Source: Rhodospirillales bacterium
Lineage (GTDB): Bacteria; Pseudomonadota; Alphaproteobacteria; Rhodospirillales; Defluviicoccaceae
Direction of reading: 5' to 3'
Length of the DNA stretch: 64,000 bases
Assembly: GCA_016793925.1 (NCBI GenBank)
Contig: JAEULH010000068.1
Coordinates: 40,483-104,482 of the forward strand
Made by a program: the position numbers and the translations under genes. Below, one piece after another: positions 1-22,838 of the stretch (positions are counted from its first letter, which is position 1; each line of letters opens with the position of its first letter). A model generated the notes under the pieces. It was not told where the DNA came from. It did not search any database and saw only the letters and a program-made list of their open reading frames with translations.

Positions 1-1196
1 GGCGAGCGCCTGTGCAGCCTTGACCGATGGCGCTCGCGCGGTCACGCCGAGAACCCGCCCGCCGGTCGCGATAACGTCGCCGTTCTCGAGCGCCGTGGAG
101 GCATGGAAGATCATGACGTCGTCGCCGACAGCGGCGGCGTCCGTCAGGCCGCGGATGTGCGAGCCTGGCGCGAAGTGGCCAGGATAGCCACGCGTCGCAA
201 GCACCACGACGAGCGCGGCATCGTCGTGCCAGCGAAGGCTCACATCGCGCAGACGGCCATGAGCACAGGCGGCAAGCGCTGCGAGGAGGTCCGACTTCAG
301 CCGGAGCAGCAGCGGCTGGCACTCCGGATCTCCGAAGCGAGCGTTGAACTCGAGCACCTTTGGGCCATCCGTCGTCACCATGACGCCGGCATATAGGACA
401 CCTTTGTAGGGCCGATCCTCGGCCTTCAGCGCGTCTACCGTGGGGCGGACGATGGTCTCCATGACGGCCCGGGTCAGGGATTCGTCCAGCACCGGCGCCG
501 GCGAGTAGGCGCCCATGCCCCCGGTGTTCGGCCCCTCGTCACCGTCGTAGGCGGCCTTATGGTCCTGGGCCGAAGCCAACGGTACGATATCGTTTCCGTC
601 GACCAGGACGAAGAAGCTGACCTCCTCGCCCTGCAGACATTCCTCGATGATCACCTCGCTGCCGGCTTTGCCGAAAGCCGCCTCGATCATGATATGATCG
701 ACCGCGGCGAACGCTTCGTTCTCGTTGTGGCAGATGATGACCCCTTTTCCCGCGGCCAGCCCGTCGGCCTTGACGACGATGGGCGCGCCGTGGCGGTGGA
801 TGAACTCCTTGGCGGCGTCGGGTTCGTCAAAGCGGCCATAGGCCGCTGTCGGGATGCCGTAGCGCGCGCACAGGTCCTTCATGAAGCCCTTGGACCCCTC
901 GATCATGGCCGCCTTGGCCGAAGGACCGAAGACCGCGAGCCCGGCCGCCTCGCAGAGATCGGCGAGGCCGGCAACCAGCGGCGCTTCAGGACCGATTACC
1001 ACCAGATCGACGGCATGGCTGATCGCGAAATCGACGATTTCCTTGAGCCGGTCGGGTGAGAGCGGGATACACTCCGCGAGGGCTGCGATGCCGGCGTTGC
1101 CCGGCGCGCAGTAGAGGCGGTCGCACAGCGGCGACTTGGCAATGGCCCAGCACAGCGCGTGCTCCCTTCCACCGGATCCAATGACCAAAACTTTCA
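1..1196 (-). CDS. purD: phosphoribosylamine--glycine ligase, C-terminus runs off the window start
   Basis: Manual reverse-complement translation from the ATG at 1196-1194 gives [24 protein letters not shown]...[12 protein letters not shown]...[13 protein letters not shown], which are PurD/ATP-grasp signatures. The frame stays open to position 1. It is absent from the ORF track because no stop lies in the window. Confidence 0.9.
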
Positions 1197-1218
1197 TGAG
1201 AGGTTCCCCAGCGCTGGC

Positions 1219-2652: not shown

Positions 2653-2705
2653 GTGCTCCTGTAGGCACTCCGCTCGTACCGACTCGCCGCCGACAGGCGA
2701 CGGTG

Positions 2706-3026
2706 CTACCGGCCGACCGCGCCCCGGTAAAGCATTCCGAGCTCCCGATAGGCGCCGAGACTGCGAGACAACGCCGCCAGCGTCGGGTCGCCCGTCGGGT
2801 CGCAGTTCTGCAAGGCGGCAAGACGCGTGCGGCGCGCGGCGATCGATCCGACCAGCTCGCGTGCGGCACGATTGATCTCTCGGCCGAATGCACGCCGCCG
2901 CCATGCACCGGCATCGCCCCCGGCCACAACTTCATCCAGCGCATTGGCCGGAAGCGGCCCATCATGGCGCAGGAAGAGTGTCTCAACCGATTCGAGCAAC
3001 GACGGGTGACGCGAGGCGGTGCGCAT
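2706..3026 (-). CDS. hypothetical protein (106 aa), co-directional with and downstream of the repressor gene
   Basis: Track ORF with plausible helical composition and an ATG start 5 nt from an AT-rich island. No family recognised. Confidence 0.35.
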   Translation of the reverse strand: MRTASRHPSLLESVETLFLRHDGPLPANALDEVVAGGDAGAWRRRAFGREINRAARELVGSIAARRTRLAALQNCDPTGDPTLAALSRSLGAYRELGMLYRGAVGR

Positions 3027-3085
3027 CGCTTATAGGATTATATTCTTGTGTAAATGTCAAGCGTCGGTCGCCGCGGCCTGCCCGG

Positions 3086-3748
3086 CTATTGGCTGGCCCA
3101 GATTATCCGCGCAAGCCACTCGACGTTCTCGACGGCGATAACCCGATCTTCGTGCTCCGGATTGAGCGAATCCAACTCGATCCTGTGCGCCGTGCGACGT
3201 CGCAGAAGCTTGGCCATGACTTCGCCTTCGCGAGTCTTCAAGACAACCCGGTCGCCGCGACGGGTACTGGCCGTGGGAGAGACGATGATGACGTCGCCGT
3301 CCCGGTAGAGCGGCTCCATGCTGTCCCCACTGATTTCGAGAGCATAGGCATGGGGGTCGCTCGCGTCTGGAAACAGAATTTCATCCCAGCCTGATCCGAC
3401 CGGGTAGCCCGCGTCGTCGAAGTATCCTTCCGTACCGGCCTGCGCCAGTCCGATAAGGGGAACCTTCTGAAAGGTATTCGATCCAGCAGTACCATCCAGA
3501 AGAGCGACGAATTCACCGATATGGGCTCCGCTTGCCTGAAGAACCTTGGCTATGCTTTCTGTACTCGGCCACCGAAGCTTTCCATCCTTCGTCACGCGCT
3601 TGCTTTTATTGAACGTCGTCGGGTCGAGACCGGCTCTTTTGGCCAGGCCCGAGGGCGACATGCCGCGCTGGTTCGCGAGAAGGTCGATAGCCCGCCAGAT
3701 TTCGGAATGCTCGAGCATGGGAACATTGTCATACGAGCTGTAGCGCAA
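3086..3748 (-). CDS. CI/LexA-like repressor: N-terminal HTH plus C-terminal S24 autopeptidase
   Basis: HTH region MSPSGLAKRAGLDPTTFNKSK. Candidate Ala-Gly cleavage site in PLIGLAQAGTEG. Catalytic-type Ser in ISGDSMEPLYRDGD and Lys in GEVMAKLL. Confidence 0.85.
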   Translation of the reverse strand: MRYSSYDNVPMLEHSEIWRAIDLLANQRGMSPSGLAKRAGLDPTTFNKSKRVTKDGKLRWPSTESIAKVLQASGAHIGEFVALLDGTAGSNTFQKVPLIGLAQAGTEGYFDDAGYPVGSGWDEILFPDASDPHAYALEISGDSMEPLYRDGDVIIVSPTASTRRGDRVVLKTREGEVMAKLLRRRTAHRIELDSLNPEHEDRVIAVENVEWLARIIWASQ

Positions 3749-3777
3749 CGCACTAGGAATATATTGCCTACTTACCC

Positions 3778-3805
3778 TTGACGATGGCGTGTAGTCCTAT
3801 ATGAT
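3778..3805 (+). promoter_or_regulatory. putative sigma70-type promoter TTGACG-N16-TATGAT reading rightward into the phage genes
   Basis: TTGACG at 3778-3783 and TATGAT at 3800-3805 with a 16-nt spacer, in the divergent region between the repressor gene and ORF 3847. Confidence 0.4.
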
Positions 3806-3812
3806 GATGCAT

Positions 3813-3827
3813 GTTCGCTTAACGTTC
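3813..3827 (+). promoter_or_regulatory. candidate alphaproteobacterial LexA (SOS) box GTTCGCTTAACGTTC
   Basis: Exact GTTC-N7-GTTC direct repeat. It starts about 8 nt after the putative -10 and ends 20 nt before the ATG at 3847. Confidence 0.5.
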
Positions 3828-3846
3828 TGGGGGGAACGTATCGAAG

Positions 3847-4212
3847 ATGCGTCGTCATCCGTACTGTCCGAAGTCCTATCCCGAATACCCGGCAACCGCG
3901 TTCGAAAACGCCGAAGAGGCGTGGTTCTGGTTCATCCGCTGCCAACAGATGCGTCGCGATGGCGCCAAACTCGACGGCGATCTGGACACGACGGCCCGAC
4001 CCTGCGATCCGGACGATGTCTATCGCGCCGCCGACAGGCTGGTACGCAATGGCACGATCCGCTCGGCACACATCAAGGTTCTGGTTCACTATGGTCACCT
4101 TCAGCGCACGCCGGATCCGCGCTGTGCCGAACAGGTCAAGGCGACGCAGTTTTGGTCCGAGGCGATTGACCGTCTTTCGAGCCCTTTGCGGGCGAAAGGG
4201 ATCATTCGGTGA
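3847..4212 (+). CDS. hypothetical phage protein (121 aa), first gene of the rightward operon
   Basis: Track ORF. Its stop overlaps the next start (GTGA at 4209-4212), suggesting translational coupling. No family recognised. Confidence 0.55.
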   Translation: MRRHPYCPKSYPEYPATAFENAEEAWFWFIRCQQMRRDGAKLDGDLDTTARPCDPDDVYRAADRLVRNGTIRSAHIKVLVHYGHLQRTPDPRCAEQVKATQFWSEAIDRLSSPLRAKGIIR

Positions 4213-4622
4213 CCGCAGGAACCGGCTCCGCAATTCCGGCCGTAGTCGTCTTCGCAGGCGGCACGACCTTGCGTTGGCTCCGCGTTCTGCGGCCGGGCTT
4301 CCGCCATTGTTTCATTGCCGTCGCATCGGGCGGGGGCTGGGTTATCCTCGATCCTCTTTCCCACATGACCAGTATCGCGGTCGTCGAAGGCTACTCTGCC
4401 GATCAGCTTGCCGACTGGTATGAAAGCCATGGGCTGAAGACGGTCAAGACGACGCTCCGCGAGGCGCCCGCCAGAATGGCGCCCTTCGCGCCCGCCACCT
4501 GTGTCGAGGCGGTCAAGCGGGTGCTGGGGATCCACGCCTGGTCCGTCATGACGCCACGGCAGCTCTATGACTATCTTCTGAATAATAAGACAATAAGCAT
4601 TGACATAGGTATATGGACCTGA
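4209..4622 (+). CDS. hypothetical phage protein (137 aa); possible permuted NlpC/P60-LRAT-like hydrolase fold (speculative)
   Basis: GTG start coupled to the upstream gene. The residue order FRHCFIAV...GGGWVILD...ATCVEAV resembles the His / polar residue / C-terminal Cys layout of LRAT-like papain-fold enzymes (HWAIYVG..GYVIH...NCEHFV). This is pattern-level only. Confidence 0.5.
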   Translation: MTAGTGSAIPAVVVFAGGTTLRWLRVLRPGFRHCFIAVASGGGWVILDPLSHMTSIAVVEGYSADQLADWYESHGLKTVKTTLREAPARMAPFAPATCVEAVKRVLGIHAWSVMTPRQLYDYLLNNKTISIDIGIWT

Positions 4623-4628
4623 TAGGGT
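4600..4628 (+). promoter_or_regulatory. putative promoter TTGACA-N17-TAGGGT upstream of the portal gene
   Basis: TTGACA at 4600-4605 and TAGGGT at 4623-4628, in a short AT-rich island at the end of ORF 4209..4622. Confidence 0.3.
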
Positions 4629-4781
4629 ACGCCTGTCGCTCGGGACTGGTGTGTCCGAACTCGCCCTGACAGAAACTGCCACCCCGCGACGCAGATTTCC
4701 CGATATAGGCCGCTTGAAGGAGACCGCCGCGATGTTTGACGCGCCGAAGTCGGTCCTGTGCCTGACCGCTCAGGATAGGCG

Positions 4782-6323
4782 ATGACCTCATCCCGGCTCG
4801 ATCCGAGGGGCATCCTTGAGCGTTATGCGCGGGCACGCCAACGCCGCGCAACCTGGGAGGCGCACTGGCAGGAATGCTATGATTTTGCCCTTCCCCAGCG
4901 CGACAGCATCATCCGGAGAGGACGTCCGGGCGAGAAGAGAACCGAAAAGCTCTTCGATGCGACAGCGCCGGATGCGGTCGATCAGCTCGCAGCCAGCCTG
5001 ATGGCGCAGTTGACGCCGCCGTGGTCGACATGGTTCGGCTTCTGCGCGGGCCCGGATGCCGATCCGGCCCTGCGCAGGGTCTTGGCGCCGGACCTCGAGC
5101 GGATGAGCCGGATCGTCCAGGCTCACTTCGACCGCTCGAACTTCGTGGTCGAACTGCACCAGTGCTATCTCGACCTTGTCACCGCCGGCACTGCATGTCT
5201 GATGTTCGAGGAAGCGGGAACAGGCGAAGAGTCCGCTTTTCGCTTCACCGCCGTTCCCCTTTCCCAGGTCGTGCTGGAGGAGGGAGCGTCCGGTCGTCTC
5301 GACACGACCTTCCGCCGGAGCCAACTGAGCCCGGCGCATGTGCTTGCTCGGTTTCCAGACGCTCGCGACGCCGAGCATCTCGCGGACCTGGTGCGCGAGA
5401 AGTCCGACGCCAGCCTCAACGTCGTCGAGGCCGTCGTGCCGGACGGCCGAGGCTATGCGTATCTGGCGGTCGCGGAGAACGGGCAGGCGCCTGACGGCAA
5501 GGTGATGGTGCTGGGCGAAGGGCGCTTCTTGTCTTCGCCGTTTATCAGTTTTCGCTGGTCCAAGGCTCCCGGCGAGGCATACGGCCGGTCGCCGGTGATG
5601 AAGGCGCTGCCTGACATCAAGACCGCGAACAAGGTCGTCGAATTGGTTCTGAAGAATGCGTCGATCGCAGTCACGGGAATCTGGCAGGTCGACGACGACG
5701 GGGTGATAAACCCGGCGAATATCAAGCTCGTTCCCGGCGCCGTCATTCCAAAGGCCATTGGCTCGGCCGGCCTGACACCGCTCGAGGCGCCCGGCCGCTT
5801 TGACGTCTCCGAGCTTGTCCTCGATCAGGTCCATGCCCGCATCCGCAAGGCCATGCTGGTCGACCAGCTTGGACCGGTGAACGGTCCGCGCATGACGGCC
5901 ACCGAGGTGCTGGCGCGAGCGGCCGAAATGGCTCGGCTGCTCGGCGCCACCTACGGCCGCCTGCAGTCTGAACTGCTGGCGCCCCTCGTCGTCCGGGCGC
6001 GAATGATCCTGGCTCGGCGCGGCGAGATCCCCGATTTGCCGCTCGATCACCGAATGGTTGCACTTGAACATCGCTCACCGCAGGCGCGCCACCAGGCCCA
6101 GCAGAGCGTTCAGAACACAATGCTCTGGCTGGACACCGTCCGCGCGCTGGGCACGGAAGCCATGCTTGCCGTCGACCAGACGGCGGCCGCCCGCTGGCTT
6201 GCGCAGGCGCTGGGGGTCCCTGGCGAACTTGTGCGCGAGCCTGGCGAGGGACTTTCGTTGTCTGAGACCGCCATTTCGTCTCCTTCCGACGCGCATGTCG
6301 CGTCCGCAGGAGGGTGGAGATGA
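4782..6323 (+). CDS. phage portal (head-to-tail connector) protein, T7 gp8 family
   Basis: Several blocks align to my remembered T7 gp8 sequence: LERYARARQRRATWEAHWQECYDFALP ~ YERLKNDRAPYETRAQNCAQYTIP; VDQLAASLMAQL ~ LNNLASKLMLAL; GEAYGRSPVMKALPDIK ~ GESYGRSYIEEYLGDLR; RMTATEVLARAAEM...SELLAPLV ~ RVTAEEIRYVASEL...QELQLPLV. Confidence 0.9.
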   Translation: MTSSRLDPRGILERYARARQRRATWEAHWQECYDFALPQRDSIIRRGRPGEKRTEKLFDATAPDAVDQLAASLMAQLTPPWSTWFGFCAGPDADPALRRVLAPDLERMSRIVQAHFDRSNFVVELHQCYLDLVTAGTACLMFEEAGTGEESAFRFTAVPLSQVVLEEGASGRLDTTFRRSQLSPAHVLARFPDARDAEHLADLVREKSDASLNVVEAVVPDGRGYAYLAVAENGQAPDGKVMVLGEGRFLSSPFISFRWSKAPGEAYGRSPVMKALPDIKTANKVVELVLKNASIAVTGIWQVDDDGVINPANIKLVPGAVIPKAIGSAGLTPLEAPGRFDVSELVLDQVHARIRKAMLVDQLGPVNGPRMTATEVLARAAEMARLLGATYGRLQSELLAPLVVRARMILARRGEIPDLPLDHRMVALEHRSPQARHQAQQSVQNTMLWLDTVRALGTEAMLAVDQTAAARWLAQALGVPGELVREPGEGLSLSETAISSPSDAHVASAGGWR

Positions 6324-6631
6324 GCGAATTCGACTGGTCACCTGGCGCGGAGACGCAGCTTCCGCCTGCGAACGCGGATTGCGCTGCGCAAACCGATGGC
6401 GAGATGGCTGCAGCATATGCGCGCTGTTTCTCGACGCCGGACGGACAGCGTGTTCTTGCCCATTTGCGCCGCCGGACCTTCGCCCGCATCTGCGGCCCCG
6501 ATGCGCCTGAAGCGCTGCTGCGTCACGCAGAAGGCCAGAGACAACTCGTTGCCAGCATTGTCGCCCTCGCCAAGAGAGGCGGCTGGGCGACGCTCTCGAT
6601 TGAAGGCGAGCCTGGAGAGATCGAAGCATGA
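6320..6631 (+). CDS. small conserved phage protein between portal and scaffold (Bbp19-like position; name from memory, unverified)
   Basis: The ATG at 6320 overlaps the portal stop (ATGA) and follows AGGAGG at 6308-6313. The stop overlaps the next ATG (6628). Confidence 0.6.
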   Translation: MSEFDWSPGAETQLPPANADCAAQTDGEMAAAYARCFSTPDGQRVLAHLRRRTFARICGPDAPEALLRHAEGQRQLVASIVALAKRGGWATLSIEGEPGEIEA

Positions 6632-7368
6632 GCGAAAGCAACACCCGTCACGATGAGCAAGCGATTGATCCCGCATCGGTCTCTGCCACCGAGACGTTCG
6701 CGCCACAGGACACACAGCAGCCCGCGCCCGACCATGCGGTTCGGCGTTCTCTGCCGGATCGCTTTCTGGACGACATCACCGGCGACGTGCGAACGGAAGC
6801 GCTTGTTGATGCCTATCTCGACCTTCAGGCCCAACTCGCCGAACTGCCGCTTCGAGAGATACCGAAAAGCCCTGACGACTACGAAATCGAGGTTCGTACA
6901 GACCTGTTTGCGAGCGATGCCGAGGTAAACCGGAAGCTGCATGAGGCCGGTTTCGACCAGAACCAGGCTCAGCTCGTCTATGACCTCGCCGCTTCGCACC
7001 TGCTTCCTATGGTCGCCGAGGTCGCCTCGACATACGAGGCGGAGGGACAGATCGCGAAGCTCAAACAGGACTTCGGCGGCGACGAGCAGTGGCAGGAAGT
7101 TTCCAGGCAAATGCAGACCTGGGGGAAGCGCCATCTGCCCGCTGAAGCGTTCGGAATTCTGGCGACGACGCGTGAAGGCGTCCTGGCGATGCACAAGATG
7201 ATGGCAGGCGGGGAGCCGGCCTTGCTGGGCAACGCCGGCGAGGACAGGGCCGCGCCGACGGAAGCTGAGCTGAAGCAGATGATGCGCGATCCGCGATACT
7301 GGCGCGACCAGGATGCGGCCCTGGTGGAAAGGGTCCGCGAAGGGTTCCGGCAGATCTATGACAATTGA
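6628..7368 (+). CDS. putative capsid assembly/scaffolding protein
   Basis: Acidic, helical 246-aa protein located between the portal and major capsid genes, as T7 gp9 is. The call rests on position and composition. Confidence 0.6.
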   Translation: MSESNTRHDEQAIDPASVSATETFAPQDTQQPAPDHAVRRSLPDRFLDDITGDVRTEALVDAYLDLQAQLAELPLREIPKSPDDYEIEVRTDLFASDAEVNRKLHEAGFDQNQAQLVYDLAASHLLPMVAEVASTYEAEGQIAKLKQDFGGDEQWQEVSRQMQTWGKRHLPAEAFGILATTREGVLAMHKMMAGGEPALLGNAGEDRAAPTEAELKQMMRDPRYWRDQDAALVERVREGFRQIYDN

Positions 7369-7404
7369 GGGGTGAGCGCGTCTGGTCGCGCCGCTCCCCC
7401 CGGG

Positions 7405-7430
7405 GGCGTCGGCTGCCGGCAGCCGACGCC
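7405..7430 (+). terminator. 26-nt perfect palindrome GGCGTCGGCTGCCGGCAGCCGACGCC (attenuator or RNA-processing hairpin candidate)
   Basis: Perfect inverted repeat 37 nt after the scaffold stop, followed by CTGTCTTCC, which is only a weak U tract. Confidence 0.35.
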
Positions 7431-7568
7431 CTGTCTTCCACCGCAGGCGCGCAATCCATGCGACCTGTGAAGGCCAACGTCCGCAGCCGCTGGCCGCAGC
7501 CGTCCGTATAACCGACTCGGCTGTGCTAACGAATTTGACAAGAATCTACCGTTTCAGGAGATATCTAG

Positions 7569-8387
7569 TTGTCACTAAGCATAACTCAATCATTCATAAA
7601 AAATTTCGAAGCACTGGTCCACATCAACTATCAGCAGATGGGAGCGAAGCTGCGGCCAACTGTCCGCACGAAGGACAACGTGATCGGCGCGTCGACTACG
7701 TTCCAGAGAGTCGGCAAAGGCACGGCGAGCACGAAAGCCCGTCACGGCAAGGTTCCGGTCATGAACGTCGACCATGCCCCGGTCGAATGCGTCCTACAGG
7801 ACTTCTATGCCGGCGACTGGATTGATCGGCTCGACGAGTTGAAGACGAATATCAACGAACAACAGGTTGTCGCCAAGGCCGGCGCTTACGCACTGGGACG
7901 CAAGACCGACGAGCTCATCATCGCTCAGTTCGCCGGGGCTACGGCTTCGGTCGGCGTCGACACCGACGGCCTGACAAAGACAAAGGCGCTCGCCGCGTTC
8001 GAAACCTTGGGGGAGGTCGATGTCCCCGACGACGGCCAGCGTTTTGCAGTTGTCGGCTGGAAACAGTGGAGCGAGTTGCTCAACATTCCCGAGTTCGGCA
8101 ATGCCGACTATGTGGGCGACGACGAACTCCCGTGGAAGGGTTCGCAGGCCAAGCGCTGGCTCGGCACGCTCTGGATCCCGCATTCGGGGTTGCCGCTCGA
8201 GGCCGGCGTCCGCTCGTGCTTCTGGTACCACAAGACGGCAGTGGCACATGCGTGCGGTTCCGATGTGCAGACCGACATTTCCTGGCACGGCGACCGCGCC
8301 GCTCATTTCGTCAACAACATGATGAGCCAGGGCGCATGCCTTATCGACGCCGCCGGCGTCGTCAAGATGCCTTGTCGCGAAGCCTAG
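7569..8387 (+). CDS. phage major capsid protein
   Basis: TTG start 8 nt after AGGAG (7556-7560). The 272-aa ORF directly follows the scaffold gene. The N-terminus MSLSITQSFIKNFEALVHINYQQMGAKLR resembles capsid proteins of BPP-1/T7-order prophages as I remember them. Confidence 0.75.
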   Translation: MSLSITQSFIKNFEALVHINYQQMGAKLRPTVRTKDNVIGASTTFQRVGKGTASTKARHGKVPVMNVDHAPVECVLQDFYAGDWIDRLDELKTNINEQQVVAKAGAYALGRKTDELIIAQFAGATASVGVDTDGLTKTKALAAFETLGEVDVPDDGQRFAVVGWKQWSELLNIPEFGNADYVGDDELPWKGSQAKRWLGTLWIPHSGLPLEAGVRSCFWYHKTAVAHACGSDVQTDISWHGDRAAHFVNNMMSQGACLIDAAGVVKMPCREA

Positions 8388-8403
8388 ACTGCGGAGAGCG
8401 AAG

Positions 8404-8673
8404 ATGTCGTATAACGCAAATGATCTGAGCGTCCTGGCCTACGCCAACGGGTTTACGCTGTGGCACTACCGGACGACCGACGTCGCGAGTTCTGTGGATA
8501 ATCAAGGTTACTTCGACGAAGCGGGCGATGTGTTCCGGAGCGGCGATATGATCCTGGCCAACACCGGCACGGGCGGCACCTCCGCGGCCGGCCTGTTCCT
8601 GGTGAGCAGCGCCGCCGCCGGCATGGTCGATGTCGCCGACCTTCTCGCGGTCGGCACCACGAACACCGATTGA
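8404..8673 (+). CDS. small head-associated phage protein (89 aa; possible decoration/cement protein)
   Basis: Immediately follows the capsid gene. The motif NDLSVLAYANGFTLWHYRT recurs in similar prophage modules in my memory. Function is unverified. Confidence 0.55.
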   Translation: MSYNANDLSVLAYANGFTLWHYRTTDVASSVDNQGYFDEAGDVFRSGDMILANTGTGGTSAAGLFLVSSAAAGMVDVADLLAVGTTNTD

Positions 8674-8819
8674 CGCTTCAATCGCTTGGTCCCCGCAGGC
8701 GCTGTTGAAGCGAATACGCGAACGCGAAGAGCGCGTCTGTCCATTGGCGCCTTCCTGCCGAAGCTGACAAGAAGCCTTTCGCTTCCACCCCTCGCGATGT
8801 TTCGAGAGGATCGCCAGTC

Positions 8820-9388
8820 ATGGCTATGAGCCGGATCGATTTGTGCTCGCGCGCACTTCTCAAGATCGGGGCCAACGTTATCAGTTCGCTTGACGAAAGA
8901 ACTGCCGAAGCCGATGTCGCCAACAATCTTTACGACTATATTTGCGACGCCCTTCTGTCGGCACACCCTGGCACTTTTGTACCACGCAACGGAAACTTGC
9001 CGCACTCTCTGAGGAAGCCGTTGTTGATCACGAGAACATGTTCGCGCTCCCGGCCGATTGCCTCCGCGTGTTGTCGGCGGGTCCCAGCGGCAGCGGCGCC
9101 GGCCTCGTCTACCGGCTGTTCAACGGAAAGCTTCATGCGGATGCTGCGGAGGTCACGCTGACCTACATTTATCGCGCTTCAGAGACCGATTTCCCGCCCT
9201 TCTTCGACAAGGTTCTGATCGCGCACCTGGCCGCGGAATTTTGCATTCCGCTCACCGACAGCACGTCGCGTTGGGAAAGCCTCCGGAAGGCAGCGGAAGA
9301 CGAACTGAAACAGGCCAAACTGATCAACGCGCAGGAAGTGACACCGGCCTGCATCGACGATTTCGTGCTTGTGGAGACTCGCTACTGA
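8820..9388 (+). pseudogene. head-tail adaptor (T7 gp11-size) interrupted by a -1 frame change near 8966-8971
   Basis: The N-terminal 50 aa (MAMSRIDLCSRALLKIGANVISSLDERTAEADVANNLYDYICDALLSAHP) are in frame 0. The continuation WHFCTTQRKLAALSEEAVVDHENMFALPADCL... runs to 9388 in the frame of track ORF 8942. The join lies at a CCC run. Confidence 0.6.
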
Positions 9389-11286
9389 TGGCTCGGGTGA
9401 GAGTAGCCAGGACCAACTTTTCCGCCGGCGAAGTTTCCTCCCGTCTCCTCGGCCGCACCGACTTGCGGGCCTTCGAGAACGGCGCCGCCCTGTTGCGAAA
9501 CGTCATCATCCACCCGACGGGAGGCGTCAGCCGCCGTCCCGGTTTGCGCTTCATCGACGTCGCGAAAGGGCCGGGCCGTCTTGTTGCAGCCGAATTCAAG
9601 AGCGGCGAAGTCTACCTCCTTGTCTTCTCCCACTTCGCCGTCGACGTCTACCGCGACGACGTCAGGATAGCCGGAGCTGCCACCCCGTGGACGCTCGCTC
9701 AACTGGCTCAACTGAACTGGGTGCAGACCACGGATTCGCTCCTGGTCGTCCATCCCGATGTGCCGCCCCAGGAAATCACACGACGTGACGCAACCAACTG
9801 GATCATCGCGGAGTGGAGCTTTTCCGAGAAAGGCGGACGAAAGCTTATCCCGCACCGCAAGATCGCCCCGGAGCAGACGACGCTGAACCCAAGTGGCACA
9901 AGCGGGAACATCGCAATCCTCGCGTCGGACGAGGTCTTCGCGCCCGATCACGTGGGCATTCGGCTTCGCTTGAACAACCGCGAGGTCGCCGTTACCGAGG
10001 TCGTATCCGCAACCGAGATCCGCGCCGACGTAAAGCAATCGCTGACTTCCACGCAGCCAACCGAAGACTGGACCGAGGAAGCCTTTTCGGCGGTGCGCGG
10101 TTGGCCTGCAGCCGTTTGTTTCCATCAGGATCGCCTTGTTATCGGCGGCTCCAGGGATCTGCCCAATCGCCTGTGGTTGTCAAGAACGGCGCGTCTGTTC
10201 GACTTCGATATGGGCGACGGCCTCGACGACGAGGCCATGGAGTTTGCGATCCTCTCCGATCGCGTCAGCGCCATTCGGGCGGTGTTCTCCGGTCGACATC
10301 TTCAGGTTTTCACGTCCGGCGCCGAGTGGATGGTGAGCGGCGAGCCGCTGACCCCAAGCAACATTCAGCTTCATCGGCAGACACGTATTGGCTCCATTGC
10401 AGCGCGCACGGTGCCGCCGAAAGATGTCGACGGCGCGACGGTGTTTGTCGCGCGCTCCGGAAAGCAGATCCGCGAGTTTCTGTTCACCGATACCGAGCAG
10501 GCCTATCAGGCCAATGATCTGGCGTTGCTATCGGATCATCTGATCGAAGAACCGGTCGACATGGATCTTGATCAGGTCGAGCGGCTTCTGCACGTGGTCA
10601 TGGCCGACGGCACGATGGCGACGTTGACCGTTTACCGCAACGAGCAGGTCAGCGCCTGGACTTTGCAGGAAACCGCCGGTGCGTTCCGCTCGGTCGCCGC
10701 GGTCGGCAAGGAAACGTTCGTTCTCGTCGAACGGGTTGGCGGCATCTTCATTGAGGCCTTTGACAGTCGGCTCAGCGTCGATGCCGGTATCCTTGCTTCG
10801 GCATCCACCGCTCAGGCAACCTGGGGTGGCCTGAACCATCTCGACGGTCTCGAAGTAAAGATTGTCGCGGACGGCGCGGTGCACCCCGACGTCGTGGTTT
10901 CCCTGGGCAGCATTATGCTGTCCGCGGAGGCGTGCGAAATCTCCGCCGGCCTCGCGTTCACGCATGTCATCGAGCCGTTGCCGGCGGTGATGCCAGGCAC
11001 GGATGGCGGGGGACTGGGGCGCCGGGTCAGACCCGTTGCCCTTACATTTCGCTTCCTCGAAACGGCAGCTCTGTACATCGACACCGGCCGCGGCATCGTC
11101 GACCACCCTTTTCCTCGACGCGGCACAAGCCCGCTCGGTACCCAGGCTGCTTCGTTCACCGGCGATCAATGCCTGCGCGCCTACGGATGGCGTGGCGACC
11201 TGAGCAGAAGCGTTTGGCGGATTGCACAAAGTGAACCGCTTCCCTTCACGCTGCTGTCGGTCACGACAGAGATGAGCGCCAATTAA
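9388..11286 (+). CDS. tail tubular/nozzle protein (T7 gp12-like by size and position)
   Basis: The ATG at 9388 overlaps the upstream TGA. The 633-aa ORF begins MARVRVARTNFSAGEVSSRLLGRTDLRAFENGA and follows the adaptor gene as in T7. Confidence 0.65.
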   Translation: MARVRVARTNFSAGEVSSRLLGRTDLRAFENGAALLRNVIIHPTGGVSRRPGLRFIDVAKGPGRLVAAEFKSGEVYLLVFSHFAVDVYRDDVRIAGAATPWTLAQLAQLNWVQTTDSLLVVHPDVPPQEITRRDATNWIIAEWSFSEKGGRKLIPHRKIAPEQTTLNPSGTSGNIAILASDEVFAPDHVGIRLRLNNREVAVTEVVSATEIRADVKQSLTSTQPTEDWTEEAFSAVRGWPAAVCFHQDRLVIGGSRDLPNRLWLSRTARLFDFDMGDGLDDEAMEFAILSDRVSAIRAVFSGRHLQVFTSGAEWMVSGEPLTPSNIQLHRQTRIGSIAARTVPPKDVDGATVFVARSGKQIREFLFTDTEQAYQANDLALLSDHLIEEPVDMDLDQVERLLHVVMADGTMATLTVYRNEQVSAWTLQETAGAFRSVAAVGKETFVLVERVGGIFIEAFDSRLSVDAGILASASTAQATWGGLNHLDGLEVKIVADGAVHPDVVVSLGSIMLSAEACEISAGLAFTHVIEPLPAVMPGTDGGGLGRRVRPVALTFRFLETAALYIDTGRGIVDHPFPRRGTSPLGTQAASFTGDQCLRAYGWRGDLSRSVWRIAQSEPLPFTLLSVTTEMSAN

Positions 11287-11388
11287 GGTTGCGCCGCCCG
11301 GCGACCGCGCCGCGGACGCGTCATCAAGTTCCGCCGCACTCCGCCAGCCAGCGGTTACAGCATCCCGCCACACATAGGAGTTTGCAAG

Positions 11389-11838
11389 ATGGGGGGCTTC
11401 GTCCCAGCCGCAGCGCTGAGCGCCGTGCAGATGAGCATCAGCGCCGCGCAACAGGAACGTCAAGCGGATGCCGCACGGGGCGCCGCGAAAGCAGAAGCCA
11501 GGTCGAAAATTGCGCAGATCAATGCGGCGAAAGCCGCCGAGGATCGCTTGCGGAACGAACGGCTGCGGCGCGCCCAGGCGAGTCAACGGGCCCAGTTCGG
11601 CTCTGCGGGCATTGCTTCCGGAGGATCGGCGCAAGCCGTGCTCGCCGGGTTGTCCAAGGAAGCGGCGCTGACGGCGGCCGAGCAAAACCGCCTGAACGCG
11701 CTTCGCATCGGCCAGATCAACCAGCAGCTCGACTGGCAGCGTCGCAAGAACCTGCTCGAGCTTTCGAACTACAAGTCAACGGCGGCGTTTGACCTGATGA
11801 AGCAGTCAGCGAGCAACGCCAACCTGTTGTCAAATTGA
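11389..11838 (+). CDS. Ala/Gln/Arg-rich coiled-coil phage protein (T7 gp13-size internal/assembly protein candidate)
   Basis: 149-aa ORF preceded by TAGGAG. Called on position after the nozzle gene. Confidence 0.5.
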   Translation: MGGFVPAAALSAVQMSISAAQQERQADAARGAAKAEARSKIAQINAAKAAEDRLRNERLRRAQASQRAQFGSAGIASGGSAQAVLAGLSKEAALTAAEQNRLNALRIGQINQQLDWQRRKNLLELSNYKSTAAFDLMKQSASNANLLSN

Positions 11839-11871
11839 TCCCAATCATATTAGAGCAAAGAGAACTGAATC

Positions 11872-12078
11872 ATGACGGACACAAAGCCGTGGTTTTTGTC
11901 GAAGGGTTTTGTTGGACCTCTGATCGCTGTTGTTGCAATAGCGCTGGAAAACATGGATATCATCGCACTCGACTCTAACAGTGTATCAGACATCGTCTTT
12001 CAAATGATCGCTCTCGCCGGAGCCGCGTTTGGAATGATCGGTCGTGCAGTGGCTGACAAGCGCCTGACGAAGATGTAG
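11872..12078 (+). CDS. putative class II holin (68 aa, two predicted TM helices, basic C-terminus)
   Basis: Hydrophobic stretches GFVGPLIAVVAIAL and IVFQMIALAGAAFGMIG, with a tail RAVADKRLTKM. It occupies the T7 gp17.5 position. Local GC is low. Confidence 0.5.
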   Translation: MTDTKPWFLSKGFVGPLIAVVAIALENMDIIALDSNSVSDIVFQMIALAGAAFGMIGRAVADKRLTKM

Positions 12079-12106
12079 CGGCGGCGCCATTCGAAAGCAC
12101 GATCTC

Positions 12107-12637
12107 ATGTCCATTGACCTTGAAAAGCGAATCGATCGCCTGGAGGCCGTTCAGGACCGCGTCTTCGGCAAACTGGATGAACTGCACGTCGAGTTTGTCA
12201 CGCTCTCGTCCAAAGTGGGCAACGGACTGGTGATGTCGTCCCAGGCCCATGGCTGCGAAATAGAGCAACTCAAAGCGGCGCACAAAATCCTTTCGGACGA
12301 AGTAGTACTTCGGTCGAAGGAGTTTGAGGTCAGGCATGTTCGCTTGGCTGCAGATCTCAAGCTGCTTGAAAGCAACATCATGAAGGACTTTGAGCAGCTC
12401 AAGCTTGCAATTCCCCAGGAGATACGGGCAGAAGGCACCGCGTTCATCGAAAACCTGCGCAAGCATCGAGAAGAAGAACGTCTGGAGCGTCTCGCCATCG
12501 AAAGAGAACGACGGGCAGAAATTGCCAAGCTCGCTGTAGAGCGAAAGATTTATATCATTCTCGGCGCCATAGCTATAACTCTCGGTGCACCTCTGATTAT
12601 CCGTGCGATTGACAGCATTTTAAGCAAACTTTCGTAG
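12107..12637 (+). CDS. coiled-coil protein with a single C-terminal TM anchor (176 aa), function unknown
   Basis: Heptad-rich, charged N-terminal ~150 aa followed by IYIILGAIAITLGAPLIIRAI. GC is lower than in the flanks. Confidence 0.55.
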   Translation: MSIDLEKRIDRLEAVQDRVFGKLDELHVEFVTLSSKVGNGLVMSSQAHGCEIEQLKAAHKILSDEVVLRSKEFEVRHVRLAADLKLLESNIMKDFEQLKLAIPQEIRAEGTAFIENLRKHREEERLERLAIERERRAEIAKLAVERKIYIILGAIAITLGAPLIIRAIDSILSKLS

Positions 12638-12641
12638 CACA

Positions 12642-12974
12642 ATGAAGGAGAATAGCTTCGCAAGACGCTCCGATGTTGTCTTGGTCGAAAAAGATGCACC
12701 CCGAAAGTCTTACACTGCCGACATCAGCGCTGATCTCCCCCTTCTGCTACATCATGCCTATCAGGCCTATCGCACCCGCGTTCTGGCGGGATTTCCCGCC
12801 GATGCAAAGGAATTCACCAGCGCGCAGGCGGCATGTCGAGCGGCGCTCGCTCACGTCATGCTGCTGCTGAGGCTCGAAGAGCGGGTTGCGAGGATCCAGT
12901 GCGGTCGCACCTTTGAAGAAGTCGACGGCCTGCAGGAATTGATTGCGCAGGCCCGCGTCGCTCTCGACCAATGA
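12642..12974 (+). CDS. hypothetical soluble helical protein (110 aa); small-terminase position in the T7 order
   Basis: Track ORF. Position-only inference. Confidence 0.4.
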   Translation: MKENSFARRSDVVLVEKDAPRKSYTADISADLPLLLHHAYQAYRTRVLAGFPADAKEFTSAQAACRAALAHVMLLLRLEERVARIQCGRTFEEVDGLQELIAQARVALDQ

Positions 12975-13010
12975 AGTTCCGAATGTTTTTTAATAAGATC
13001 GGTGTAAGAA

Positions 13011-13358
13011 ATGCCGCGCTATTTGTTTTTATGTGTCGGTTTATTCCTTCCGGCAATTTTCGTTGCCGGGTGTTCGACCGCTGAAAAGGCTCGCAGCTTC
13101 GCCGACGCAGCGGTGGCGGTGCAGCAAGAGCTCGGCCTGGAGGCGCTACGTCAAGCTGAGATCGAGCGACAGAGGCTGCGCAGTGCGCGCTGCTATAGCC
13201 CGGCGCTAACGCCGGCGGCTGTAAGCGCCGCTGCGGAGGACGCTGAGCTTGGTCAGGACTGGGTCGAGGAACTGCTGCGCGACTGCCCGCAGTTCTCGAC
13301 ATTTGTGTCAAACCTCGTCGTCAGCAGGGCCGCCAGCGTCGGCATGACGCTTCCGTAG
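13011..13358 (+). CDS. putative lipoprotein (115 aa); o-spanin position in the T7 order
   Basis: Signal peptide plus lipobox: MPRYLFLCVGLFLPAIFVAGC. Confidence 0.6.
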   Translation: MPRYLFLCVGLFLPAIFVAGCSTAEKARSFADAAVAVQQELGLEALRQAEIERQRLRSARCYSPALTPAAVSAAAEDAELGQDWVEELLRDCPQFSTFVSNLVVSRAASVGMTLP

Positions 13359-13366
13359 GCGCGTCC

Positions 13367-14902
13367 ATGCCAGAGGACCTCGTTCACCCGGCACGCGCTT
13401 CGAGCGCGTGCCGAGCGACGTTTTCCGAATTCATATGGATCTGGAACCACTCGCAGGACATGCCGACGCCAGATGTGCATCTACGAATGGCGCGGTGGCT
13501 GTTCGAGCGTTGGTCAAGCGGCGACCGCGAACTGCTGCTCTTGGCCTTTCGCAGCTCCGGCAAGTCAACGCTGGTCGGTTTGTTCTGCGCCTGGCTGCTG
13601 CTTCAGGACGCAAACCTTCGGATCCTGGTTCTTGCCGGCGACCTTCCCCTGGCGAAGAAGATGGTGAGGAACGTCCGGCGGTTGATCGAAAGCCATCCGC
13701 TAACCGGCGGGCTGCGAGCGCGTCGCTCCGATCAGTGGGCGGGGGACCAGTTTACGGTCGTTCGTCGTTTGGAACTGCGCGATCCGTCCATGCTCGCCAA
13801 GGGCATTTCTGCCAACATTACCGGCCTGCGGGCCGATGCCATCGTCTACGACGACGTGGAGGTGCCAAAAACATCGGATACGCCTGATAAAAGGGAGGCT
13901 CTGCGCGAACGCCTACGTGAAGCGGAATTTGTTCTTACGCCGGGAGGCCTGAGGCTATACATTGGCACGCCCCACACATATTATAGTATCTATAACATAG
14001 AATTGAACGGAGAACTGGGCGAAAGCGAAGCATTTCTTTCCGGCTACAAGCGTCTTGAAATCCCGATTCTGGACCATCGCCAGCAGAGCGCTTGGCCCGA
14101 GCGGTTCTCGCTCGATCGCATCGGCGACATGCTGTCAAAGGCGGGTCCGGCGAAATTCGAAAGCCAAATGCTGCTCAAGGCACGCCCGCCTTCCGATTTG
14201 CGGCTCGATCCGGAGCGGCTGCGCGTCTACCACGACGACCTGATCTACAGCGAGAGCAACAGGACGGCGAGCCTCACGCTCGGCGGCCGACGCCTTGTTT
14301 CGGCCTCGTGCTGGTGGGATCCGGCCTACGGCGCGCCGGAAAAAGGCGATGCCAATGCCGTTGCGGCGGTCTTTACCGATGAAACCGGGGGCTACTGGCT
14401 GCACAGGGTCCAGTATCTGACCCACGACGTCCGATTGCTCGACAACGTCGACGAAGCGACGCAGTTGTGCCGTCAGGTGGCGTCGCTCCTTCGTGATTTG
14501 CATCTGCCGGCTATCGTCGTGGAGACCAACGGCATCGGCCGCTTTCTTGCCGGGTTGTTACGACAGCAAATCGGATGGGCCGGCCTGCGCTGTTCGGTTC
14601 TGGAGCAAGTCTCTCGGACGAACAAAGACCTGCGCATCCTGGAGGCGTTCGATGCTGTTCTCGCAGCCCGGCGCCTCTCCGTTCATGACAGCGTCTTGCG
14701 TTCGCCCTTCATTCAGGAAATGCGCGAGTGGCGGCCTGGCGCGCGACGCTGCCGTGACGACGGACTCGATGCGGTTGCCGGGTGCTTGCTGAGTGAACCG
14801 GTTCGTCTGCCGCGCTTGGCGGCGGCGCCGCCGCGCGAAGTGAGCCGGGGCGCTTGGCGCGGCTTCGGACCCTTTCGGGCTGAAGGCGATTTTTCGCCGT
14901 AG
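13367..14902 (+). CDS. terminase large subunit (T7 gp19-like)
   Basis: Walker A-like LAFRSSGKSTLV, Walker B-like ADAIVYDDVE, and a nuclease-type C-terminal half. It is the last gene of the module, as in T7. Confidence 0.85.
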   Translation: MPEDLVHPARASSACRATFSEFIWIWNHSQDMPTPDVHLRMARWLFERWSSGDRELLLLAFRSSGKSTLVGLFCAWLLLQDANLRILVLAGDLPLAKKMVRNVRRLIESHPLTGGLRARRSDQWAGDQFTVVRRLELRDPSMLAKGISANITGLRADAIVYDDVEVPKTSDTPDKREALRERLREAEFVLTPGGLRLYIGTPHTYYSIYNIELNGELGESEAFLSGYKRLEIPILDHRQQSAWPERFSLDRIGDMLSKAGPAKFESQMLLKARPPSDLRLDPERLRVYHDDLIYSESNRTASLTLGGRRLVSASCWWDPAYGAPEKGDANAVAAVFTDETGGYWLHRVQYLTHDVRLLDNVDEATQLCRQVASLLRDLHLPAIVVETNGIGRFLAGLLRQQIGWAGLRCSVLEQVSRTNKDLRILEAFDAVLAARRLSVHDSVLRSPFIQEMREWRPGARRCRDDGLDAVAGCLLSEPVRLPRLAAAPPREVSRGAWRGFGPFRAEGDFSP

Positions 14903-15134
14903 CGGCAGATGATTGCCCGATGCCGAGCAAAACTTGTGGTTCTTCTACTTTCGGTAGACGACTGCCTGGCAAAAACAGCAACATTTAGGAAACATACGAT
15001 ATATAGTGATACCGACGCTCATCGGGTGTATACATAGCGTTGAAGCGGCGGTGGCGGCTCAGGTGGCAGCCTCGAAAAGTGCCCAAGGCTGAGAATTGGC
15101 CACTGCTGCAATTCGGCAAACGCAGGACGCACCG

Positions 15135-15497
15135 ATGAGCAGCAGCGATTGGACACCTGAGCGTATAGCGGCGCTGATTGCCCTGTGGAACGAAGAGCTC
15201 CCCACCAGCGAGATTGGCCGGCGGCTGTGCATCACGAAGAATGCCGTCATCGGCAAGGTGCATCGGCTGGGGTTGCCCAAGCGACGATTGCCTCCGGAGA
15301 AGCCGGAAGCCGCTCAGGTCGTACGCCTTGGCGAGTTGCGCTCGGGGATGTGCAGTTGGCCGTTGGGCAACCCAGGGGACGACTCGTTCCACTTCTGTGG
15401 TGCCGAGACGATGACCGGAAAGCCTTACTGCAGCAGGCACTGCGACGTGGCCTATGTGAAAACCGCCAAGGATCGAGGCAAGACCACCGCCGCGTAG
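15135..15497 (+). CDS. short GcrA-family cell-cycle regulator homologue
   Basis: N-terminus WTPERIAALIALWNEELPTSEIGRRLCITKNAVIGKVHRLGLPKR and C-terminus CSWPLGNPGDDSFHFCGAETMTGKPYCSRH match GcrA family hallmarks. Alternative upstream start at 15096. Confidence 0.8.
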   Translation: MSSSDWTPERIAALIALWNEELPTSEIGRRLCITKNAVIGKVHRLGLPKRRLPPEKPEAAQVVRLGELRSGMCSWPLGNPGDDSFHFCGAETMTGKPYCSRHCDVAYVKTAKDRGKTTAA

Positions 15498-15733
15498 AAG
15501 CGCCGTCGACCTGCACTGGCGATCCGTTTACGCTCATACTTTACTGATTACGATTAAAAAGCGGCTGTGAGCCGACGTCAATAACATGACGTCCGGCTGC
15601 ACGGCCTTTGGCGCTTGTTGTACTACAATTAAACTGCGGAATTCTGCCGTTTCTTGACCAGAAAGAGGAGCGCCTATTCAACAATTATTGTGTGCTGTTT
15701 TTTCGACCGATTTTCAGAGAGGCTTTTATATTC

Positions 15734-22792: not shown

Positions 22793-22823
22793 GTTTTCAT
22801 CAACCCGCTCGACCACATCGTTT

Positions 22824-22838
22824 GTTCCAGATTTGTTC
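22824..22838 (-). promoter_or_regulatory. candidate alphaproteobacterial LexA (SOS) box (GTTCCAGATTTGTTC on the + strand)
   Basis: Exact GTTC-N7-GTTC, 32-46 nt upstream of the radical-SAM ATG. Confidence 0.55.

Follow-up and report, generated by a model that had tools for sequence, protein, structure and literature searches.

A T7-type head, short-tail and packaging gene cluster conserved in Rhodospirillales, a candidate SOS-inducible gene transfer agent of podovirus origin

We analysed a 64-kb stretch of DNA from a Rhodospirillales bacterium (contig JAEULH010000068.1; the whole stretch is referred to below as the window), which carries at positions 3086-14902 a cluster of phage-derived genes. 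The order of T7-type head, short-tail and packaging genes in this cluster is real. The window probably contains one copy of an ancient, domesticated, SOS-inducible particle locus derived from a podovirus, which has been inherited mostly vertically in the order Rhodospirillales and which, judged by its genes, is a candidate gene transfer agent (GTA). The parts of this reading are not equally firm. There is little doubt that the family is a domesticated and selected locus. The chances that it transfers host DNA are about even. We propose only tentatively that it may form a second, independently domesticated alphaproteobacterial GTA lineage of the T7/pelagiphage type, which would be short-tailed, switched by the SOS response, and used for periplasmic delivery of DNA to kin for recombinational repair.

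Genes were identified by profile searches (Pfam, PHROGs, NCBIfam), and all coordinates are positions of the whole window (Table 1). An initial annotation, made from the sequence alone, had recognized the class III gene order of phage T7, and this order was confirmed by profile matches to PF12236, PF05396, phrog_394, phrog_376 and NF033889. The portal protein is 100% identical to P0001, a protein from an NCBI Rhodospirillales metagenome-assembled genome (MAG). The large terminase reached 414 bits with the NF033889 profile (cut-off 150), and contains both a Walker A (SSGKST) and a Walker B (IVYDDVE) motif.

When one genome per species was scanned, portal homologues of 56-85% identity appeared in at least 563 species-level genomes; thousands of portal relatives at 65-85% identity were found on long chromosomal contigs. 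Among the confirmed loci, of which there are at least 563, the best 80 are those of Defluviicoccus, Azospirillum, Magnetospirillum, Paramagnetospirillum, Phaeospirillum, Terasakiella, Telmatospirillum, Thalassospiraceae, Magnetovibrio and many MAGs. Homologues of the capsid protein (71-88% identity, nearly all of 272 amino acids, aa) occur in Azospirillum (including A. argentinense), Shumkonia, Varunaivibrio, Telmatospirillum and Caenispirillum. According to the NCBI taxonomy, all of the named genera that were checked belong to several families of Rhodospirillales; a few MAGs labelled as other phyla probably reflect binning errors. In the phage collection, the best match was MT838907.1, an unannotated 5-kb fragment named “Bacteriophage sp.” from human faeces (portal 55%, capsid 60%), which is probably a gut alphaproteobacterial copy of the same element and not a free phage.

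Comparison of the window proteins with the fetched loci (numbered with the prefix L) by tblastn showed the same gene order nearly everywhere, from the repressor through the nozzle to the terminase: repressor (on the opposite strand), p121, p135, portal, Bbp19-like protein, scaffold, capsid, p89, adaptor, nozzle, gp14-like protein and terminase. The genomic location is also widely shared. The genes ubiD-lysS lie to the left of the repressor in the loci of the Defluviicoccus group, Shumkonia, Thalassospiraceae and Magnetovibrio, in the window and in 13 distinct fetched loci terL is followed by a gcrA-like gene, in some cases after an intervening endolysin gene, and the flanks are collinear in all six Azospirillum species. 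The initial annotation was right in naming an S24 repressor and a GcrA-like protein as neighbours of the module, and left undescribed the two genes between the repressor and the portal gene (p121 and p135). It was wrong to describe the module as stranded: the conserved unit includes the repressor with its control region, and has the gcrA-like gene as a conserved neighbour. In two cases host genes have settled inside the cluster: a GGDEF-EAL sensor gene and a PRC-domain gene between scaffold and capsid in Azospirillum argentinense (L085, 6739-9576), and msbA-DUF374-kdtA-lpxK directly after the scaffold gene in Magnetospirillum WYHS-4 (L084, 12808-17489). Such embedded host genes indicate long residence.

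The ratio of non-synonymous to synonymous substitutions (dN/dS) was calculated by the Nei-Gojobori method (NG86) for pairs with unsaturated dS. The portal, capsid, adaptor, nozzle and terL genes gave values of 0.01-0.2, compared with 0.03-0.11 for lysS/ubiD in the same genome pairs. Within the Defluviicoccus group, which carries a compact form of the cluster (see below), the pair L011-L013 gave 0.05 for the portal, 0.04 for the capsid, 0.09 for the adaptor, 0.08 for the nozzle and 0.08 for terL, with 0.06 for lysS and 0.04 for ubiD in the flank; dS in this pair was 0.3-0.6 for the module versus 0.66-0.74 for the flank (portal 0.52, lysS 0.66). Judged by these substitution patterns, the compact form as a whole is under strong selection. 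Between the window and its nearest relatives dS is near saturation, dN/dS is 0.05-0.22 and dN is low (0.08-0.09 for the capsid, 0.14 for the portal). Full-length copies prevail for the portal (81 of 86), the capsid (55/58), the adaptor (49/52) and the nozzle (43/49), and several of the broken copies belong to long-read MAGs with more than one frameshift.

These results bear on the simplest alternative, namely a plain prophage remnant under neutral decay. The state of the window copy agrees with it, in that the adaptor gene is frameshifted and the fibre, endolysin, p70 and ejection genes are absent, and so does that of the nearest relative (L081), in which the nozzle gene is split and the xseA call is shortened. 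Neutral decay is nevertheless difficult to reconcile with the dN/dS values of the window, with those of closer pairs (0.01-0.1), with the intactness of more than 85% of the copies of each large gene, and with order-wide presence together with a conserved control region. Moreover, the single frameshift is either very recent or a sequencing error, and the split genes cluster in long-read MAGs. As an explanation of the locus, decay is barely credible, and for the family it is largely refuted. The initial annotation, which had considered a decaying prophage, expected in that case a strain-specific island with dN/dS near 1; the island is not strain-specific and the ratios are not near 1, yet this copy is indeed reduced and has one frameshift. 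Split or stop-containing nozzle, capsid, adaptor or terminase genes were seen in L081, L006, L004, L005, L007 and L010, apparently long-read MAGs, and because the disruptions cluster in such assemblies, many of them may be sequencing errors.

The module has diverged together with its hosts. The pairwise identities of its genes are correlated (Pearson r 0.67-0.97) with the identities of lysS, ubiD and the gcrA-like gene, and neighbour-joining trees of the portal and of the repressor both recover Azospirillum, the Magnetospirillum group and the Terasakiella pair; the Defluviicoccus loci form one clade with related MAGs in the portal tree, but not in the repressor tree. The GC content at third codon positions (GC3) differs between module and host flank by a mean of -0.02 over 15 loci, and in the window it is 0.74 versus 0.73. 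The window contains no tRNA gene, as the initial annotation had stated, and no Rfam match, and no attachment (att) repeats were detected in its flanks, the only direct repeats being 14-nt matches at chance level. The absence of an integrase, replication genes, RNA polymerase, a fibre, a clear endolysin and proteins of the gp15/gp16 type, which that annotation had also noted, was likewise borne out within the 64-kb window. The forms of the cluster and its missing genes were judged from six Pfam-annotated neighbourhoods of relatives, and neither in these nor in the window was there an element-borne integrase, excisionase, replication gene or RNA polymerase; ejection proteins of gp15/gp16 size were absent from the same set. 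The only integrase-like gene (in L085) is part of an insertion which truncates the portal gene in that strain.

A still-mobile element would be either a minimal temperate podovirus or a capsid-and-tail satellite, which uses the replication and integration functions of a helper or of the host and spreads horizontally. Such an origin would explain the presence of a CI-like S24 repressor and a switch of the SOS type, as is usual in temperate phages, the listing of these loci as proviruses in IMG/VR (the calls in isolate genomes are mostly of about 18 kb) and the swapping of fibre genes between lineages. It would also suit the Magnetospirillum group, in which flanks mostly differ and with which the copy of “Terasakiella PR1” is grouped. 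However, besides the functions listed above, no primase or att repeat was found in the window and the six annotated relatives; the dS of the module equals that of the flanking lysS/ubiD; the Azospirillum flanks are collinear and ubiD-lysS/gcrA synteny extends across families; housekeeping genes are inserted in the cluster and its GC3 is identical to that of the host. We therefore consider current mobility improbable. The capsid-forming satellite envisaged by the initial annotation is not supported: in the six annotated loci no integrase, att site or replication gene belongs to the element, and the element encodes its own short tail. The comparisons of presence, synteny and dN/dS which that annotation had suggested thus decide among its three readings, in favour of a domesticated particle locus (podovirus-type, GTA-like), as supported by order-wide presence, synteny with host genes, selection at the level of lysS/ubiD and host codon composition.

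The probable control of the domesticated locus can be read from the region between the repressor gene and p121. The S24 repressor is encoded divergently, about 1.3 kb upstream of the portal gene, in 74 compared loci (56-80% identity). Its open reading frame reaches a TTG at 3748, and the likely start is the ATG at 3718. The features of a self-cleaving S24 protein (an Ala-Gly site, the serine of GDSM and the lysine of AK) can be read from its sequence. The possibility that it is LexA itself was rejected, as the protein scores 34 bits with TIGR00498 against a cut-off of 111.

The spacer of about 95 nt between the repressor gene and p121 has kept its length and several sequence blocks across the order. 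In the window it includes an imperfect inverted repeat, TAGGAATATATTGCCTA, at 3754-3770, and a sigma-70-type promoter, TTGACG-16-TATGAT, at 3778-3805 (10/12 matches, the best in a 13-kb scan), whose spacer contains a second CCTA arm. Between this promoter and the first gene lies an alphaproteobacterial SOS box, GTTCGCTTAACGTTC, at 3813-3827; the form GTTC-N7-GTTC is the SOS box reported for Caulobacter (PMC9578287). Counts were made over 73 loci, and 58 intergenic regions of similar length from this set were aligned. A YAGGA half-site is present in 71 of the 73 loci and TTGAC in 63, both being conserved as alignment columns, and the exact GTTC-N7-GTTC box is found in 28, where 0.0035 would be expected per region. 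The idea that the repressor has one strict palindrome as its operator was considered and rejected: TAGG-N8-10-CCTA occurs in 18/73 loci, and only the TAGGA half-site is widespread. From these motifs we infer that the repressor and LexA bind the respective sites, and we are rather confident that the locus is under SOS control in this lineage. The LexA box would represent control by the host; the main repressor is itself phage-derived and matches phage repressor families of the CI type.

An exact SOS box, GTTCCAGATTTGTTC, was also found elsewhere in the window, at 22824-22838, just upstream of a radical-SAM gene which is followed by a DUF4130+UDG gene (20106-21572, minus strand). This gene pair, at a distance of about 7 kb from the phage-derived locus, resembles a repair cassette under LexA control, and the presence of the same box in front of it indicates that the motif is in use in this genome.

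A second conserved element precedes the capsid gene. In 44/58 loci the motif CC(A/G)(C/T/G)AACC, which in the window has the form CCGTATAACCGAC (7504-7516), is found at a median distance of 62 nt upstream of the capsid start, and it travels with the capsid gene even when host genes separate this gene from the scaffold gene; it is probably a late promoter or a regulatory site. Its use as a general regulon signal was rejected, since it is enriched only before the capsid gene and not before other genes. The same spacer contains a perfect 28-nt palindrome, GGGCGTCGGCTGCCGGCAGCCGACGCCC, at 7404-7431, which is not followed by a T-run and may be a binding site or else a hairpin involved in processing or stability. 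The capsid gene itself starts with TTG in the window and in L001, L002 and L040, and with ATG in most loci; this is surprising, as a weak start would not be expected in the gene for the most abundant structural protein.

The first two genes of the operon are conserved. The p121 protein has the invariant motifs AEEAW.W and RPC.P.D, and may possibly be a regulator or a small terminase. It has no match in Pfam, PHROGs, NCBIfam, PADLOC or PDB, and its AlphaFold2 (AF2) model, a weak one (pLDDT 64), shows four helices with no fold match. The start of p135 overlaps the stop of p121 (ATGA). Its AF2 model is confident (pLDDT 85.5) and resembles uncharacterized Caudovirales proteins in BFVD (E 2.5e-8, TM 0.7). 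Against PDB this model gave no match at E<0.1, the top hits being two cysteine peptidases (E 0.12-0.8, not significant). Neither Pfam, PHROGs, NCBIfam nor PADLOC yielded a match for p135, and searching PDB sequences with profiles brought nothing usable. A metagenomic protein of 272 aa (P0244) is a natural single-frame fusion of p121 and p135, which suggests that the two proteins work together.

Further along the operon, the p89 protein encoded after the capsid gene is possibly a decoration or head protein. What had been taken for a gp13-size protein is present at its position (11389-11838), but is a counterpart of proteins that weakly match T7 gp14 (PF24072); its tblastn identity is 41%. The holin-like protein of 68 aa (11872-12078) gave no family match in the profile searches. 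The gene for p176 sits in the lowest-GC kilobase of the region (0.54) and is, on this evidence, probably a recent insertion into the cluster. The p110 protein is found in loci of the compact form and is missing from the fuller-form relative L086. It was considered as a small terminase and rejected, since a protein missing from L086 cannot serve the family in this role.

Table 1. Features of the phage-derived cluster and of neighbouring genes in the window
Feature	Position	Strand	Support and remarks
xseA	1159-2652		left neighbour
S24 (CI/LexA-like) autoproteolytic repressor	3086-3748	-	Pfam Peptidase_S24 2.7e-24; weak HTH_26; phrog_4 transcriptional repressor 2e-28
Control region between repressor and p121	3754-3827	+	inverted repeat, promoter, SOS box
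p121, first gene of the operon	3847-4212	+	conserved helical protein; 75 loci, 39-60% identity
p135, phage-derived conserved protein	4209-4622	+	79 loci; invariant RHC and CVE motifs
Portal, T7 gp8 type, 513 aa	4782-6323	+	PF12236 1.7e-135; phrog_332
Bbp19-like small protein	6314-6631	+	PF25181 1.8e-17; 82 loci; homologue in pelagiphage Hodr
Scaffolding protein, T7 gp9 type	6628-7368	+	PF05396 6.7e-17
Scaffold-capsid spacer	7404-7516	+	28-nt palindrome and capsid-upstream motif
Major capsid protein, 272 aa, TTG start	7569-8387	+	PF19821 1.9e-79; phrog_3437
p89, 89-aa protein after capsid gene	8404-8673	+	phrog_18004 9.6e-21; 56 loci; homologue after the Hodr capsid gene
Adaptor / tail tubular protein A, T7 gp11 type	8820-9388	+	phrog_394; interrupted by a 1-nt deletion
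Nozzle / tail tubular protein B, T7 gp12 type, 632 aa	9388-11286	+	phrog_376 3.2e-140
Candidate gp14-like internal virion protein, 149 aa	11389-11838	+	orthologues in L082 and L086 weakly match PF24072 T7_gp14
Holin-like 68-aa protein with two hydrophobic segments	11872-12078	+	segments read from sequence; 42% identical to L083 p96
p176, 176-aa coiled-coil protein with C-terminal membrane segment	12107-12637	+	only in the window and L001
p110, 110-aa protein at T7 gene 18 position	12642-12974	+	phrog_31793 4e-8, function unknown
Lipoprotein, 115 aa, signal peptide ending in VAGC lipobox	13011-13358	+	read from sequence; 52% identical to L083 p177
Large terminase (terL), T7 gp19 type, 511 aa	13367-14902	+	NF033889 termin_lrg_T7 6e-124; phrog_38
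GcrA-like gene, right-hand neighbour, non-structural	15096-15497	+	PF07750 3e-29
Radical SAM gene	21569-22864	-	

The cluster exists in a fuller and a compact form. The fuller form, represented by Varunaivibrio sulfuroxidans (L086), Shumkonia (L082) and Azospirillum (L085), has a small gene, p70, before the portal gene. After the gp14-like gene it encodes either a fibre with a T7-fibre-type N-terminus together with a LamG/DUF7483 protein, or a pectate-lyase-type spike, and after the terminase a transmembrane (TM) protein and a Hydrolase_2 endolysin. In L086 the element ends with a further gene, at 20531-20818, which adjoins the endolysin gene and encodes a holin with three TM segments (3TM; PF11351, “GTA_holin_3TM”). 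In the compact form, found in the window, L001/L081, L083 and the Defluviicoccus group, only genes for small membrane proteins, lipoproteins and proteins of unknown function lie between the gp14-like gene and the terminase; L083 retains an endolysin gene after the latter.

The window copy is of this compact form, with small membrane protein and lipoprotein genes where fuller forms have fibres, and p70 and the endolysin are lost in addition; the fibre, endolysin, holin and p70 genes of the fuller relatives are not present anywhere in the 64-kb window. Its adaptor gene is split over two frames (8820-9161 and 8942-9388) by a deletion of 1 nt between 8968 and 8969, after the CCC run at 8966-8968; where relatives have CC(G/C) TGG, the window has CC-TGG (8966-8971). 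A DNA alignment with three relatives shows a single gap in the adaptor gene, at CACCC-TGG. The gp11-size adaptor named by the initial annotation is therefore an adaptor in identity (phrog_394), but not a single reading frame. When stitched, the protein of 189 aa matches residues 3-187 of the 190 of phrog_394 (5e-47), and the product has 189 aa in all four loci in which the gene was called. The position of the deletion after a run of three C, together with the 140 codons downstream, which are open and 71% identical to a relative, indicates that the frameshift is very recent or an assembly or sequencing error. This copy may be impaired, or it may depend on genes located at other sites of the genome; a third possibility is that an assembly error is its only defect.

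We propose that the locus would work as follows. In undamaged cells, the S24 repressor bound to the TAGGA/CCTA repeats would keep the promoter at 3778-3805 off, and in this lineage LexA, on the box at 3813-3827, would also repress it. DNA damage would activate RecA, both repressors would cleave themselves and the operon would be transcribed, while the conserved element upstream of the capsid gene would probably drive or boost late expression. Proheads would build on the portal and scaffold, and the T7-type terminase would fill them with DNA of the cell, as the locus is capable of neither excision nor replication. The adaptor and nozzle would close the head to give a short-tailed particle, the producing cell would lyse (with the help of holin and endolysin genes, where present), and the released particles would act as a GTA. 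Since proteins of the gp15/gp16 type are absent, DNA delivery would stop at the periplasm and would need uptake functions of the recipient. By analogy, we infer a periplasm-only delivery like that by the Rhodobacter capsulatus GTA (RcGTA), which brings DNA as far as the periplasm, recipient uptake functions then being needed.

The genes themselves agree with this proposal in several respects: the head, tail and packaging genes are phage-derived, they are not accompanied by replication, integration or excision functions of their own, and they are inherited with the host under purifying selection. A number of observations, however, weigh against it. Transcription of the operon, particle production and the DNA content of the particles are predictions. 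The capsid protein is 46% identical to, and of the same length as, that of a 34-kb phage, so that the head may have room for more DNA than the 11-15 kb of the locus, and such a capacity departs from what is classically required of a GTA. Terminases of the T7 type normally require specific concatemer ends, and a small terminase was not found for the element. The window lacks an endolysin and has a frameshifted adaptor, and the compact sub-lineage lacks a fibre gene in the cluster. The exact LexA box, limited to 28 of the 73 loci, does not occur in the Defluviicoccus group, only 18 of these loci have the strict TAGG..CCTA palindrome, and several relatives, mostly long-read MAGs, have split genes. 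Finally, the flanks differ among most species of the Magnetospirillum group, and also in L003 and L014, and both the portal and the repressor of L031 (“Terasakiella sp. PR1”) nest in the Magnetospirillum group, far from other Terasakiella, owing either to a mislabelled record or to horizontal transfer. The differing flanks and the placement of L031 indicate that some relocation or transfer has occurred.

Domestication for a purpose other than gene transfer must also be weighed. The locus might serve SOS-triggered altruistic lysis, in which DNA or particles are released, interference with related podoviruses by diversion of the DNA or proteins of the infecting phage, or the production of a killer particle. 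Purifying selection and vertical inheritance demonstrate usefulness only and not purpose; the compact sub-lineage is under selection (dN/dS 0.04-0.09 in L011-L013) even though its cluster has no fibre gene, which is awkward for a particle that has to adsorb, and ejection proteins of the gp15/gp16 type are missing everywhere. On the other hand, the portal, scaffold, capsid, adaptor, nozzle and a terminase whose ATPase motifs are intact have been retained jointly, which speaks for a complete particle filled with DNA; the fuller forms have lineage-specific fibres or spikes (LamG/DUF7483; pectate-lyase-like), as expected if adsorption matters, and no PADLOC defence family matches any of the small proteins. 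Such purposes therefore appear unlikely, although less so than mobility or decay, and a GTA-like particle locus is still the reading that we prefer.

Several observations concern the right-hand neighbourhood of the cluster. The GcrA-like gene scores below the NCBIfam cut-off for GcrA (94 vs 280 bits). It is followed by genes for two large secreted malectin-domain proteins (15608-17692 and 17798-19891), one with cadherin repeats and the other with a GH71 domain, which have a similar C-terminal malectin module and lie outside the phage-derived unit. A related gene also follows the gcrA-like gene in the nearest relative (L081, 20915 onward).

To our knowledge, only a handful of GTA lineages are known, and all of the experimentally studied alphaproteobacterial ones come from a single siphovirus-like ancestor. 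Full-text literature searches, beyond whose reach most subscription journals lie, returned no description of the present cluster. According to the initial annotation, neither a domesticated particle locus nor a satellite with a T7-order module was known to have been described; one reservation applies, in that a GTA-like element of Faecalibacterium prausnitzii (FpGTA), with proteins of short-tailed phages, has since been reported, and was described as the first of that morphology (PMC12946183). The concept of a podovirus-like GTA is therefore not new, whereas novelty appears to lie in the lineage described here, with its T7/pelagiphage ancestry, order-wide conservation and SOS switch. If our reading is correct, the domestication of phages for DNA packaging was repeated within one bacterial class, and a short-tailed architecture and an SOS-based switch are added to the GTA repertoire. 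The question is relevant to gene flow in bacteria associated with plants, in magnetotactic bacteria and in those of wastewater, and cultured carriers (Azospirillum, Magnetospirillum/Phaeospirillum, Defluviicoccus vanus, Varunaivibrio and Shumkonia) make it testable. Furthermore, since prophage finders and IMG/VR count these loci as viruses, provirus counts are inflated.

Among known systems, the closest cultured phage is the 34-kb Pelagibacter phage EXVC031P Hodr. With Hodr and pelagiphages of the HTVC010P type the element shares the capsid (46% identity), portal (36%), adaptor, p89, scaffold, Bbp19-like protein and nozzle, the nozzle of Hodr being 28-38% identical to that of the window over two aligned segments. 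The likeness extends in L086 to the fibre N-terminus, the endolysin (47%) and the 3TM holin (46%). Unlike the element, Hodr is autonomous, has early and replication genes, and encodes proteins of 783 and 1247 aa after the gene at the gp14 position (i.e. at the gp15/gp16 position), and its terminase gives no match to the T7-type terminase of the element. None of the early, replication and gp15/16-size genes of Hodr is present in the window. By gene content, the element corresponds to one half of an alphaproteobacterial podovirus, that of structure and lysis, and lacks the ejection-channel proteins and the entire early region.

With the class III region of T7 the element has in common the succession of portal, scaffold, capsid, adaptor, nozzle, internal protein, fibre and small genes with the large terminase last, and its terminase belongs to the NCBIfam T7-type equivalog. 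It differs from T7 in having no RNA polymerase, DNA metabolism genes, gp15/gp16 or recognizable gp18, and in being a chromosomal, vertically inherited locus with a repressor of the temperate type. Capsid-forming phage-inducible chromosomal islands and other satellites are likewise small chromosomal elements with their own capsid, portal and terminase under a repressor; however, they have an integrase, att sites, replication genes, helper tails and a patchy spread, none of which applies to the element.

GTAs of the RcGTA type (Rhodobacter capsulatus, Caulobacter crescentus) resemble the element in consisting of a head, tail and packaging cluster of about 11-15 kb without replication or integration functions, in being inherited with the host under purifying selection, in having accessory genes that can lie elsewhere, and perhaps in having expression tied to host regulation. 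Large clusters of this type are confined to a clade which excludes Rhodospirillales (Shakya et al., PMC5721377). The two are unrelated in origin, and the only family shared by them is the PF11351 holin of L086. RcGTA combines an HK97-type head with a siphovirus tail, in contrast to the PF12236 portal, PF19821 capsid, T7-type scaffold and terminase and adaptor-nozzle short tail of the element, and is controlled by CtrA/GafA or RogA/GafYZ instead of an S24 repressor and a LexA box; moreover, particle production and random packaging are only predicted for the element. Its matches are all to T7/podovirus families and none is to the RcGTA head-tail cluster, which places it outside the Rhodogtaviriformidae.

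Particles induced by mitomycin C in Azospirillum provide a lead only and are not evidence for the locus; the link is appealing in that the locus looks SOS-inducible. The original report of these particles is said to have described them as siphovirus-like. They were obtained from A. lipoferum and strain B510, contained DNA of about 10 kb and had no matching prophage, and the authors attributed them to HK97-type regions (PMC3899980, PMC2818188).

FpGTA differs from the element in its Firmicute host, its two operons, the packaging of about 9 kb and its experimental support (PMC12946183). Likened to the element by description, it nevertheless constitutes a precedent for a podovirus-like GTA.

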